Of a stretch of DNA of 20,000 nucleotides, positions 564 to 20,000 are shown in pieces. Below the pieces are notes generated by a model. It saw only the letters and a list, made by a program, of their open reading frames with translations, searched no databases and was not told where the DNA came from. Where the stretch lies: IMG/VR virus record IMGVR_UViG_3300037504_000366. One strand, 5' to 3'. A program made the translations under genes and the position numbers. Position 1 is the stretch's first letter, and the number at the start of each line of letters is the position of its first letter. This DNA is from an uncultured virus (IMG/VR IMGVR_UViG_3300037504_000366). Lineage: Duplodnaviria; Heunggongvirae; Uroviricota; Caudoviricetes.

Positions 564-794
564 TCACTCCTCCACTTCTACATCAAGAATCTCGAAAAAC
601 TCGTGTGGGTGCTTGTCAAAGTACAGCTCTATAGCTTTCTCTGGATCTTCTGGCATCTCCCCAGCGACACTCTCCACCTCGCCCCACCAGAATTCTACCC
701 ACCTCCAGAGCCCTTCCCAGGCCCCATCTTTCGTCTTGTAACCAGTTAGATCACGCCCGTGCTTGTGCGTGATCTCTAAAATGTGTGTTACCAT
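564..794 (-). CDS. hypothetical protein (76 aa, acidic)
   Basis: ORF with AGGAG SD, overlapping the upstream stop. Confidence 0.7.
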   Translation of the reverse strand: MVTHILEITHKHGRDLTGYKTKDGAWEGLWRWVEFWWGEVESVAGEMPEDPEKAIELYFDKHPHEFFEILDVEVEE

Positions 795-17687: not shown

Positions 17688-18011
17688 CTACCCGACAGCT
17701 TTGTTGTACGCCTTCAAGGCGGCCATCGCTTGCTCGTACGAGATATGTATTCCCTTGAGCATCAGGAATTGTCCCGGCTCCATAGCTCTAGCCAAGACTG
17801 TGAACGGCTCTAGTGCCTCCAGGAGCTCTGGCGCTGCGCTCCACAACAGCGCGTTGCTCCTCGAATTCATTGTCACGCCCTCTGCGACGTGGTGGTACGC
17901 CTCCCCTATAATGTACTCTCCATTGTGGACGATGGCATAGTCCCCGCCGTCATCGATCTCCTTGATTTTGCCAGATGACGGCCCTCTTATAGACAAATTC
18001 TTTGCGTGCAT
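17688..18011 (-). CDS. phage protein with NAxLxxAAPELLEAL motif
   Basis: AGGAGG SD; common phage early-gene motif. Confidence 0.75.
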   Translation of the reverse strand: MHAKNLSIRGPSSGKIKEIDDGGDYAIVHNGEYIIGEAYHHVAEGVTMNSRSNALLWSAAPELLEALEPFTVLARAMEPGQFLMLKGIHISYEQAMAALKAYNKAVG

Positions 18012-18093
18012 ATACCCTCCTAAGGTTTGTTCTGGACAGCCGGTCCTCTATACGGGTTGCCTAGACCCACCGGCTGTCCAACGATCCGGCTAT

Positions 18094-18164
18094 GAGGTCA
18101 TAAGCGGACTTGAACCGCTTGTCTCTGATTACGTCAGTGTCTTACCTGCTAGACGAATGACCTC
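18094..18164 (-). ncRNA. tRNA-like RNA with truncated anticodon arm
   Basis: GAGGTCAT/ATGACCTC; GTCT-AGCAGGTA-AGAC; CTGA-CGTAA-TCAG; AAGCGG-TTCAAGT-CCGCTT. Confidence 0.7.
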
Positions 18165-18166
18165 TC

Positions 18167-18263
18167 GAGAGTGCCTGGCCGGTGTTACCAGGAGCTATCT
18201 CGAGAATTACTCCTGGCTACGAGGGAGCGACCCCCGAGCGGGATTCGAACCCGCGACACCCTC
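18167..18263 (-). ncRNA. circularly permuted tRNA-like RNA (T arm, closed acceptor, D-like arm; YrlA-like topology)
   Basis: GAGGGTGTC/GGCACTCTC closing stem; GCGGG-TTCGAAT-CCCGC; CGGGGG-TCGCT-CCCTCG; TAGCCA...TGGTAA...GGC. Confidence 0.6.
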
Positions 18264-18265
18264 AG

Positions 18266-18338
18266 AGCACCGGGTGGGATTCGAACCCACAACCTAGTCT
18301 TTACAAGAGACCAACTCCTCCAATTGAGCTACCGGTGC
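18266..18338 (-). tRNA. tRNA-Thr(TGT)
   Basis: GCACCGG/CCGGTGC, U73; GGTCT-CTTGTAA-AGACT; normal T arm. Confidence 0.93.
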
Positions 18339-18343
18339 TTATT

Positions 18344-18731
18344 GTGGTGTGGTGTGCTGTTACGCCAAAGGCTCCAGCGACAGATTTACGCATTGGAGTC
18401 GGCTATCGCGCCAGCTTGCGGATGTCGTCTCCTTAATTGCACTTTCCTCTCGTACTGGTGCAACGTACGTATCTCTCCTGGCTTGCCCCGCTCCGATGCT
18501 AGCCCGCTCAGACGAAAGTTTCACCAGTACATTTATCCAAGCTGGAAGCCGCACGGGGTGCTCGTTTCGCTAGGGTCTGAGGTGCCTGCTGGTCTCGTAG
18601 GGGTAAGGCTTCCCTCTCCTGCCACCTCTGATATTAACGTTGCCCAGGCTGCCAGTTATCTCCCAGGCAGAGCGATCCCTATTGCCACTCTTTAAAGGAT
18701 GGCTGCCTCTAAGCCAACCTCCCAACACCAC
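18344..18731 (-). ncRNA. structured ncRNA combining a 23S rRNA H42-H44-like GTPase-associated centre and a sarcin-ricin loop
   Basis: GGGAGGTTGGCTTAGAGGCAGCCATCCTTTAAAGAGT ...321 nt... GCGTAACAGCACAC, closed by GTGGTG/CACCAC; internal TTGCAC-C-AGTACGAGAGGA-AA-GTGCAA. Confidence 0.85.
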
Positions 18732-18734
18732 GAG

Positions 18735-18806
18735 TGGACCAGGTAGGATTCGAACCTACACCACCAGCCTCTTTGGTTGCTGGTGCTCTCCAAGAGCTAC
18801 TGGCCC
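18735..18806 (-). ncRNA. tRNA-like RNA with Ala identity (G3.U70, A73) and a 10-nt anticodon loop
   Basis: GGGCCAG/CTGGTCC-A; GCTC-TTGGA-GAGC; CCAGC-AACCAAAGAG-GCTGG; GTAGG-TTCGAAT-CCTAC. Confidence 0.8.
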
Positions 18807-18810
18807 AGAA

Positions 18811-18886
18811 TGGTGGGTGATGTCTCCACCACCCACCAACCCTAGAAAGGAGAAAAATCAGGCGCAAGGACCCCGCCCCCTTGCGC
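18811..18886 (-). other. two hairpins flanking an anti-SD-like CTCCTTTCTA
   Basis: GCGCAAGG/CCTTGCGC, then CTGATTTTTCTCCTTTCTAGGG, then a 12-bp GAGA hairpin. Confidence 0.45.
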
Positions 18887-18906
18887 AGACTTGCCCCCGT
18901 TACACC

Positions 18907-19140
18907 TCAGACAAGCCCCCCTCGTTCGTTGATCTCGTCGATTTGATACAGAGCAGACTCTGTTGATATGTCGCCATCGTGCCATCTTTCAATGACCTCG
19001 ACGGTTGCGTTAACTTGCTCTATTCTGTCAAGGATATCCTCGAGAGCGCTTGCATCTATGATGCAGGTTCCGTCATCTAACAGCTCTGCTTTCTTGCAAT
19101 TAAATCCCAACTGCTTGATCTTGCTCTTAAGGTATCCCAT
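18907..19140 (-). CDS. hypothetical protein
   Basis: 77-aa ORF with a purine-rich leader. Confidence 0.6.
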   Translation of the reverse strand: MGYLKSKIKQLGFNCKKAELLDDGTCIIDASALEDILDRIEQVNATVEVIERWHDGDISTESALYQIDEINERGGLV

Positions 19141-19188
19141 TTCATCTCTCTCTTTCTGCCGAAGGCTATTTTTAAACAGTTGCCGTAG

Positions 19189-19260
19189 CTGCGCCGGTAG
19201 GACTCGAACCTACAATCTTTTGATTAACAGTCAAATGCCTTGCCGTTAGGCTACGGCGCA
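19189..19260 (-). tRNA. tRNA-Asn(GTT)
   Basis: TGCGCCG/CGGCGCA, G73; TTTGA-CTGTTAA-TCAAA. Confidence 0.95.
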
Positions 19261-19276
19261 GGGTATGACCTAGCGA

Positions 19277-19313
19277 CAAGTATACCACGTTTACTCACAG
19301 ACTCCAATAATCT
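19277..19313 (-). promoter_or_regulatory. sigma70-type promoter upstream of tRNA-Asn and the ncRNA array
   Basis: TTGGAG-17 nt-TATACT with TG extension; shares ACGTGGTATACTTG with the 8825-8838 promoter. Confidence 0.6.
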
Positions 19314-20000
19314 CGAGACTCCTCATCCATTCCAGCACCTCGTCGAAATCGACTAGCCTGGACACCGTGAGGGCGTATCTGCCCTCGAAACCATCGATAC
19401 CCCGAACCTGCCCGAAGTGTCGGGGAATTATTGACGGGCACACTGTTTCAAAAAAGATCATCCGCTGGTTGTTGTCAAACGCCGAGCATATCTTGAATGC
19501 ACGCTTGCGCTCTGGGGCAGAGACACCAGTGAGCACATCCACTGCGACACGATTCGCGGCGAGCGCCTCGTTGCTACGCTCTAGGTCTTTCTCGAGCTGA
19601 GCACAGCGCTCAGCCCACTCGTTAGCCTTTTCTTGCGCTTTATCCCGCTGATCGCAGGCGTGCTCGAACCCTGCGGCCTTTTGCTGTAGCTCGTTGTTCT
19701 CCTTAACTAGCCTGCCTACCTCATCACCAAGGGCACTGCACAGATCTCTCTCGCGTTCGTGCTTGGCGAGAGCGCGGTCGCGCTGGAGCTCTGCCTCGGC
19801 TCGCTTGCCCTTTTCTGTGAAGTAGTCCTCGCGCCAGCCTGCGCGGGTCCGTGTGTCTGAGAGTTCTGTTCTTAAGTCCCCGATTGTGCTCGACATCGAA
19901 TCAATCTCATCGTCGCGCATCTTGAGCGCTAGGCTCAGCTCCTCAATCTTGGCAGCCCAGGCAATCAGCTTACTCGCCTGGGCCGCGTTGGCCTTTCTCA
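19291..20000 (-). CDS. coiled-coil protein (5' partial)
   Basis: Frame stays open upstream of ATG 19920 to the window edge; heptad-rich. Confidence 0.7.
   Translation of the reverse strand, partial: RKANAAQASKLIAWAAKIEELSLALKMRDDEIDSMSSTIGDLRTELSDTRTRAGWREDYFTEKGKRAEAELQRDRALAKHERERDLCSALGDEVGRLVKENNELQQKAAGFEHACDQRDKAQEKANEWAERCAQLEKDLERSNEALAANRVAVDVLTGVSAPERKRAFKICSAFDNNQRMIFFETVCPSIIPRHFGQVRGIDGFEGRYALTVSRLVDFDEVLEWMRSLEIIGVCE

Follow-up and report, generated by a model that had tools for sequence, protein, structure and literature searches.

The 20,000-nt stretch analysed here, hereafter the window, belongs to an uncultured Caudoviricetes virus (IMG/VR IMGVR_UViG_3300037504_000366). Positions 18344 to 18731 of its minus strand hold a noncoding RNA (ncRNA) element that copies the GTPase-associated centre (GAC) of 23S rRNA, helices 42–44, and in the window also the sarcin–ricin loop (SRL). 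An earlier note had proposed, from the sequence of the window, a selected, structured RNA that fuses the two ribosomal elements. The mimicry and the selection hold up, since both elements are conserved in relatives and the helices covary; the fusion is present in the window but is rare, and the part that defines the family is the GAC mimic alone. We collected at least 190 distinct elements with this core, which apparently make up a large, undescribed family of phage RNAs and which share their strand with neighbouring tRNA genes. Family counts given below are among these elements, part of which come from the matches listed of a longer scan; sequence records are referred to by L and a number.

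A copy of the GTPase-associated centre

The window RNA comprises the following parts, with rRNA positions given in the usual E. coli numbering, anchored on A1067 and A1095.

18344..18731, minus strand: entire ncRNA of about 388 nt, bounded by the two strands of the closing helix
18722..18731, minus strand: closing helix, 5′ strand (helix 42-like), which pairs with 18344-18354
18696..18720, minus strand: helix 43 mimic (rRNA 1057-1081) with the A1067 loop, matched by the large-subunit (LSU) rRNA model
18687..18695, minus strand: 1082-1086 turn and G1087-U1090, the 5′ part of the split helix 44
18370..18686, minus strand: inserted variable arm, 317 nt, closed by GGC/GCC
18522..18531, minus strand: anti-SRL segment UGUACUGGUG, the complement of the SRL 5′ stem plus AGUACG
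18436..18464, minus strand: SRL-like hairpin (7-bp stem, 1 nt, dodecamer, 2 nt)
18445..18456, minus strand: SRL dodecamer AGUACGAGAGGA, identical to the E. coli 23S SRL dodecamer
18366..18369, minus strand: UUUG linker preceding G1091, near-invariant in relatives sampled via the 5′ motif alone
18352..18365, minus strand: helix 44 hairpin mimic GCGUAACAGCACAC (G1091-C1104) with the A1095 loop GUAACA
18344..18351, minus strand: closing helix, 3′ strand

Positions 1096-1145 of the LSU_rRNA_bacteria model align to window positions 18722-18672 (23.1 bits, E 4.5e-5), and the 5′ flank of the GAC shares 93% identity over 30 nt with E. coli 23S rRNA (L218, in whose annotated rRNA the numbering departs from the convention by 3 nt in the GAC and by 1 nt in the SRL). 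Model match and alignment together support the earlier assignment of the flanks to helices 42–44. The terminal GUGGUG (18731-18726) and CACCAC (18349-18344) described for the minus strand are there, A1067 and A1095 are both read in the window, and the changes that had been listed relative to E. coli (1053-1106 U-A, 1054-1105 G-C, 1058-1080 G-C and 1090-1101 U-A) are correct against L218. The window base at 1070 is G. A genuine bacterial LSU rRNA gene (RF02541) was rejected, as the match is limited to 1096-1145 and scores 23.1 bits against a gathering score of 50; nor is the element a stray rRNA fragment, because its relatives conserve both rRNA-like elements while their helices covary.

A profile of the SRL-bearing subfamily matched E. 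coli 23S rRNA only at the 5′ half of the GAC (E 4.5e-12) and at a 15-mer of the SRL (E 0.032). Outside these two elements the arm has no 23S likeness detectable by the profile, and the additional short-word BLAST matches to E. coli 23S are at chance level, L136 excepted, in line with the earlier remark that the rest of the insert did not resemble rRNA. The 18-nt helix 43 motif occurred in none of 200 shuffles, and the SRL 12-mer with at most one mismatch turned up in 24 of 200. The 12-mer alone is weak evidence; its significance comes from its conservation in relatives. The minimum-free-energy (MFE) fold of the window is unremarkable (z = −1.06; 17 of 100 shuffles fold as well).

The likeness to the 23S GAC extends to the three-way junction, the loop sequences and the tertiary contacts U1060/A1088, U1082-A1086 and G1071/C1072-helix 44. 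The phage RNA differs in being a free-standing gene rather than part of an rRNA, in splitting helix 44 at 1090/1091 by an arm of 60-380 nt, in having A at 1101, which forms a Watson–Crick pair with U1090, and in adding UUUG before G1091; the sequence of its closing helix is unconserved.

Covariation was assessed in 116 distinct members of standard length, in which positions inside the search patterns or subject to the length filter are conserved by construction. Five core pairs occur as 2-4 pair types each and are paired in 91-100% of the sequences:

1054-1105: paired in 116/116; GC 90, AU 22, UA 4
1053-1106: paired in 106/116; UA 61, AU 19, CG 14, GC 9
1057-1081: paired in 115/116; AU 100, CG 15
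1058-1080: paired in 115/116; UA 46, GC 34, AU 25, CG 7
1082-1086: paired in 111/116; UA 59, CG 38, AU 14

The outer closing helix adds 6-7 pairing steps without sequence conservation. Several nucleotides that the search patterns do not fix are nevertheless near-invariant (G1055, G1059, U1060, C1079, G1089 and U1090); U1060 is U in all 116 sequences, and neither G1071 nor C1072 is lost in more than one of them. The nucleotides that hold the tertiary fold, namely U1060, A1088, G1071, C1072 and the U1082-A1086 pair, are all present, A1088 not being independent evidence because the length filter fixes it. A1067 is A in 101 of the 116 members and G in 12. Among relatives sampled without fixing the helix 44 motif, A1095 is kept in 77 of 79, and helix 44 of the 5′-motif sample shows compensatory variants at 1091-1100 (G-C to U-A) and 1092-1099 (C-G to U-A). 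Helix 43, helix 44 and the closing helix thus form a GAC three-way junction that is under selection.

L044, L011, L117, L068, L089, L095, L096, L069, L035 and L136 have a further hairpin inserted into helix 43, on its 3′ side around 1077-1081.

A phage RNA family and its genomic setting

BLAST against GenBank phages gave matches in unannotated gaps of large virulent phages: Cronobacter phage GAP32, Xanthomonas phages XacN1, XbC2 and XaC1, Pseudomonas phages pf16, Milchi, Astolliot and UNO-G1W1, Aeromonas phage 4_4572, Serratia phage BF, several Erwinia phages, Ralstonia phage RSP15 and a Vibrio phage. The same search also matched contaminating rRNA in short records (e.g. L005); these matches were discarded. 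At the four phage loci inspected, the 5′ half of the GAC is followed 95-250 nt downstream by UUUGGCGUARYAGCACAC, the 3′ motif. Scanning IMG/VR for this motif yielded at least 120 loci, and the 5′ motif lay upstream at 103 of 125 motif sites (the matches listed plus the window and L001-L004), representing 92 distinct sequences. A bacterial genome collection contained 69 loci with the 3′ motif, 37 of them with both motifs, among which are isolates such as Flintibacter muris and Clostridiaceae strains. The remaining 32, on genome contigs without the 5′ motif, were treated as chance because their number is about what we estimate for random occurrences of an 18-mer in 596 Gb.

The reverse scan with the 5′ motif found 112 viral loci, 84 of them distinct, none of which continues as rRNA. 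The 3′ motif follows within four substitutions in 79 of the 84, is absent within 300 nt in 3, and in 2 the downstream DNA is too short. The outer motifs span a median of 183 nt (range 88-412 nt) in the 172 elements that were found without using the SRL pattern. Elements of this architecture occur on contigs of viruses and of bacterial genomes as well as in large phages that have been cultured. Milchi has two members in tandem: upstream of the canonical one is a diverged one (L002, about 1170-1480) with altered loop sequences in helix 43 and helix 44 and with an arm like that of XacN1.

GenBank records of cultured carriers leave the element unannotated or label it a hypothetical protein; the hypothetical-protein coding sequences laid over it in Milchi (opposite strand), Kaldavass and UNO-G1W1 are probably mis-annotations. 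No family in Rfam 15, GOLLD, ROOL and raiA included, covers the element at gathering and E-value thresholds, whether in the window, in the 18 subfamily loci or in 17 other members, so that the Rfam search named in the earlier note takes nothing from the novelty. Full-text searches of the literature outside subscription-only papers returned no description of a phage GAC or SRL mimic.

Genomic context was examined at 63 distinct viral loci, 700 nt to either side. Genes for tRNA or transfer-messenger RNA (tmRNA) are present at 34 of these, all 104 of them on the strand of the element, and at 28 of the 63 the distance to such a gene is no more than 60 nt; in many cases the gene abuts the element. 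tRNAs surround the 18 SRL-type loci, and the XacN1 copy has a terminator-like hairpin downstream. In these respects the element behaves like a stable RNA gene. In the window it begins 3 nt after an upstream tRNA-like gene and ends 5 nt before a tRNA gene:

18735..18806, minus strand: tRNA-like gene upstream (Rfam tRNA, 51.2 bits), which sets the 5′ boundary
18265..18338, minus strand: tRNA-Thr(UGU) downstream, which sets the 3′ boundary

The tRNA-like gene at 18735-18806 (minus strand) is not called by ARAGORN and has an anticodon loop of 10 nt instead of 7. Just past tRNA-Thr, at about 18225-18262 on the minus strand, is a T-arm-like piece, GCGGGUUCGAAUCCCGC, which lacks a full cloverleaf and may be a tRNA fragment or a tRNA-like element. 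At other loci, a tmRNA gene lies directly beside the GAC–SRL RNA in L134, L141 and L142, with a weaker, sub-gathering match in L145. A match to the bacterial small signal recognition particle (SRP) RNA (40.7 bits, gathering 40) is found in L143/L148 at 675-718 (minus strand), on the strand of the GAC–SRL RNA and the tRNAs; L140 contains a sub-threshold raiA-like match and L138 a DUF3800-VII RNA.

A search for a conserved neighbouring protein around 190 elements found none shared by more than 5 of the 190 loci. The top clusters are CCA-adding enzyme-like (5/190) and PTH2-like (4/190), names given by reading the sequences rather than by a family search. No L11 gene was found in the five carrier records in which it was sought. 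With neither a conserved partner gene nor an L11 gene, the RNA would be expected to act through host factors. A gene for a 2′-5′ RNA ligase is located directly upstream of the XacN1 element (L003 834-1484); none was seen beside other members.

The element has no conserved open reading frame (ORF): among the 18 SRL relatives the longest stop-free frame covers 43-130 codons and shifts in strand and frame, a comparison made without a protein homology search. Covariation at the RNA level likewise argues against a protein-coding gene. A 174-codon open frame at 18171-18695 (plus strand) runs antisense across tRNA-Thr and most of the element; it is probably an effect of composition, since similar antisense frames occur only in GC-rich relatives. 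The gene content of the window is phage-like, with phrog_1735 (E 1e-220), SSB, helix-turn-helix regulators and many small same-strand ORFs. A 667-aa window protein shows about 45% identity to large-myovirus proteins, and no close relative of the window was found among GenBank phages. A single sequencing run, probably the DNA source, was found to contain the window, and no RNA data set is listed for it.

The variable arm and the sarcin–ricin subfamily

The arm is closed at its base by a GGC/GCC helix of 3 bp that is 100% paired, with compensatory changes in all 3 pairs. Beside the 3′ junction, 38 of 190 elements (e.g. L002, L004, L021 and L074) contain the module CACCCC-(tetraloop hairpin)-GGUAAGG with a UAA bulge; GGUAAGG was looked for in E. 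coli 23S rRNA and is not present there.

An SRL is found in about 2 of the 174 elements that were collected without requiring it, namely L041 (= L144) and L057 (= L145). The forms in the cultured phages GAP32, pf16, XacN1 and Aeromonas 4_4572 are GAC-only. A combined pattern, GUACGNRAGGA followed 60-90 nt on by the 3′ motif, gave 14 metagenome and 5 viral loci. Including the window, the SRL subfamily amounts to 18 distinct sequences, 13 of which have the exact dodecamer. Two of the four matches of a simple SRL pattern in viral contigs were true loci and the other two were chance matches inside coding sequence; one-mismatch matches in L167 and L182 were rejected because they form no hairpin. 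At positions that the pattern leaves free, the tetraloop is GAGA in 16 of the 18 and GGGA in 2, the first SRL nucleotide is A in 15, G in 2 and U in 1, and the nucleotide following GGA is A in 17.

Fourteen of the 18 members were aligned (alignment A1), leaving out the divergent L131, L136, L141 and L143. RNAalifold predicts a consensus of 56 pairs, for which 92.8% of the cells are paired, compared with 29-43% when the partners are slid, and 40 of the 56 pairs show compensatory changes; none of 500 shuffles matched this, the structure having been derived from the same alignment as the counts. Of the 54 consensus pairs that can be mapped onto the window, its sequence satisfies 52. The SRL stem is 99% paired, with compensatory changes in 6 of its 7 pairs. 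In the window the exact dodecamer and its flanks of 1 and 2 nt are as the earlier note had described them, with the stem now read as 7 bp (18464-18436). Of the further pairings proposed for the insert, UAGG/CCUA alone belongs to a helix supported by covariation. UCGUCU/AGACGA is at chance level across relatives, CCAGCUUG/CAAGCUGG and CUCCA/UGGAG are missing from the consensus, and GAGGUG/CACCUC sits within a variable hairpin.

The hairpin resembles the 23S SRL (helix 95) in its dodecamer, its GAGA closed by C-G and its 1-nt and 2-nt flanks, and differs from it in standing on an unrelated arm and in having A in place of C2666. Because SRL-less members such as XacN1 have arm blocks in common with the subfamily, the hairpin looks like an elaboration of one arm class. 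The GAC–SRL RNA of L136 (486-869) is nearer to rRNA than the rest: its 32-nt 5′ GAC flank is 90.6% identical, and an 11-mer is collinear with the 23S region that follows the SRL. These resemblances may hint at an origin of the RNA via rRNA capture.

A segment located 59-66 nt upstream of the dodecamer complements the SRL 5′ stem and AGUACG. On A1, this anti-SRL helix of 10 bp is paired in 97.1% of 140 cells, against 10.7-47.1% with partners slid, and 5 of its 10 pairs show compensatory changes; the pair of the first SRL nucleotide goes from A-U to G-C in L137 and L144. The segment is present in 14 of the 18 members, with at least 9 contiguous bp in 12 and interrupted pairing in L135 and L142, and is missing from L131, L141, L143 and L136. 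The anti-SRL helix is incompatible with the top of the SRL stem and with the S-turn. As both pairings covary, selection appears to act on two alternative folds, and the SRL fold may be one that can be switched. Conservation also extends to AGAGGAA, the 3′ half of the loop, which lies outside the anti-SRL pairing; the SRL fold explains this best.

Possible functions

The isolated 58-nt GAC RNA is bound tightly by L11 and is the classic target of L11 and thiostrepton; EF-G binds SRL and GAC oligonucleotides. We tentatively favour, with a confidence somewhat short of balanced, a role for the phage RNA as an off-ribosome decoy of the factor-docking site, which would bind host L11 and titrate a host protein that recognises that site. 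The element would be a stand-alone phage ncRNA, co-transcribed with the phage tRNAs and probably released by tRNA-processing enzymes. Its core would refold as a copy of the GAC that keeps the fold-holding nucleotides and the exposed A1067 and A1095. The variable arm would depart from the base of helix 44, thus leaving the factor-facing head free, and in the window subfamily the arm tip would present a faithful SRL hairpin. The likeliest target would be a toxin or defence effector directed against translation, one that acts on the GAC or SRL by modification or cleavage; a translational GTPase or RelA would be less likely. What the analysis shows directly is the mimicry, a fold under selection, the family and its tRNA setting; transcription and processing, L11 binding and decoy action we infer. 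Conservation of the exposed adenines suggests that a reader of the GAC head matters, beyond the C-terminal domain of L11. Enzymes with such targets exist: in the section of PMC8661411 consulted, Tre23 is described as ADP-ribosylating helix 44 at bases 1095-1098, and VapC-mt20/26 and ricin are cited as acting on the SRL.

Several points weigh against this decoy role. Tre23 is an interbacterial toxin. To our knowledge, no anti-phage system targets the GAC. About 98% of the family has no SRL, so that models needing both elements cannot explain the family, and 108 of 172 elements have none of the recurrent arm modules that we defined. The extreme variability of the arm also fits a GAC that serves as a mere scaffold. 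Finally, the unconstrained MFE fold of the window takes the anti-SRL pairing over the SRL hairpin, and this pairing means that base pairing within the RNA itself constrains a portion of the “universal” SRL sequence.

A more specific proposal, possible but doubtful, is that the RNA together with host L11 would rebuild, away from the ribosome, that face of the 50S subunit which activates GTPases, with the anti-SRL segment masking and unmasking the SRL in the SRL subfamily, and would trap or trigger defence toxins, RelA or translational GTPases. No viral mimic of a functional centre of the ribosome would then have been known before it.

A pure sponge for L11 (or for the L10–L7/L12 stalk) is an unlikely alternative on our estimate. 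The RNA would sequester free L11, leading to L11-poor ribosomes, or titrate L11-dependent processes such as RelA activation, and so blunt the stringent response during infection, while the arms would tune stability or add protein sites. L11 has high affinity for the isolated domain and a role in RelA activation, and what stays invariant across the family coincides exactly with the domain that L11 binds, including every nucleotide that determines the fold. Carrier phages infect many bacterial phyla, as fits a universal host target, and the lack of an L11 gene in the five carrier records is consistent with a sponge. However, L11 already inside ribosomes would not be quickly removed, A1067 and A1095 are conserved though they are dispensable for binding of the L11 C-terminal domain, and the SRL arm is left without a reason.

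We also consider it improbable that the RNA is a structural scaffold with no ribosomal target, in which the GAC would provide a stable three-way junction or handle, perhaps for nuclease resistance or for self-assembly like that of ROOL and GOLLD, and the “SRL” would be either a generic module of S-turn and GNRA loop or simply a strand of the anti-SRL helix. The sarcin–ricin motif is a recurrent RNA module, the core is constant and the arm highly variable, and the anti-SRL covariation reaches the first SRL nucleotide. The phage tRNA-island RNAs ROOL and GOLLD form RNA-only cages, according to the excerpt of PMC12286853 consulted. Against a scaffold, the near-identity to rRNA includes exposed loop nucleotides that it would not need, the hairpin is kept in four SRL members without the anti-SRL segment, and L136 has further rRNA-like stretches after the SRL.

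Less probable still, the SRL subfamily together with L11 would form a miniature GTPase-activating centre that captures or mis-activates EF-G, EF-Tu, IF2, RF3 or RelA, with the anti-SRL segment as a switch. Both factor-contacting rRNA elements are present in native geometry, GAGA prevails at the free positions (16/18), the 3′ half of the SRL loop is conserved outside the anti-SRL pairing, and the neighbours are RNAs of translation (tRNAs, tmRNA in four loci, and the SRP-like RNA). Such a trap would account for the rare SRL subfamily only, sponging of elongation factors would harm phage translation too, and GGGA in 2 of 18 alters the equivalent of A2660. Sequence analysis does not separate the decoy, the sponge, the GTPase or RelA trap and the scaffold. 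The roles put forward in the earlier note, a toxin decoy or a sponge for L11, RelA or GTPases, are plausible.

That the element is an artefact, either rRNA reads assembled into a chimera or a piece of captured rRNA in decay, is a reading of negligible probability that is already refuted by the family: the window is metagenomic and shows depth spikes at 18665-18766 from rRNA-like contigs of other organisms, but the same architecture recurs in complete genomes of cultured phages and in at least 190 distinct elements with compensatory changes, none of the 84 distinct viral 5′-motif sequences runs on as rRNA, and one 12.8-kb contig from a tidal-flat metagenome (possibly the source data) spans 17900-19400 at even depth with no differences. 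The chimera that the earlier note had named as a danger to its claim can therefore be set aside.

Ribosomal-protein operon leaders, such as the L10 leader, also copy an rRNA protein-binding site, in the case of L10 one from the same stalk region, but they are cis-acting leaders of bacterial mRNAs with a loose resemblance to rRNA. The phage RNA is near-identical to rRNA, lies in tRNA islands with no ribosomal-protein gene downstream, matches no Rfam leader and would act in trans. The small stable species 1 and 2 RNAs of phage T4 (rnaC and rnaD) are annotated as lying in the phage tRNA cluster and being processed with the tRNAs; they were rejected as relatives, as their sequences contain no GAC-like or SRL-like motif. 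GOLLD and ROOL are large structured RNAs of phages and prophages, often in tRNA islands, and their function is given as unknown in the part of PMC12286853 consulted; they do not match the element at Rfam thresholds and are without an rRNA-like module. A phage-encoded RNA mimic that neutralises a host protein has a precedent in pseudo-ToxI, as described in an extract of PMC3475682; pseudo-ToxI mimics an antitoxin RNA, whereas the phage GAC RNA copies the ribosome itself. Among the known systems compared, not one is a viral, stand-alone copy of a functional centre of the ribosome.

Several hosts of carrier phages are easily cultured, and the decoy idea is therefore directly testable. If it is true, many large phages across bacterial phyla would carry a gene-sized copy of the factor-docking site, a new class of viral mimicry directed at the translation apparatus itself. 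The RNA would provide a compact natural handle on the recognition of RNA by L11, on how toxins and translation factors read the GAC and SRL, and on why the tRNA islands of phages hold so many unexplained RNAs.

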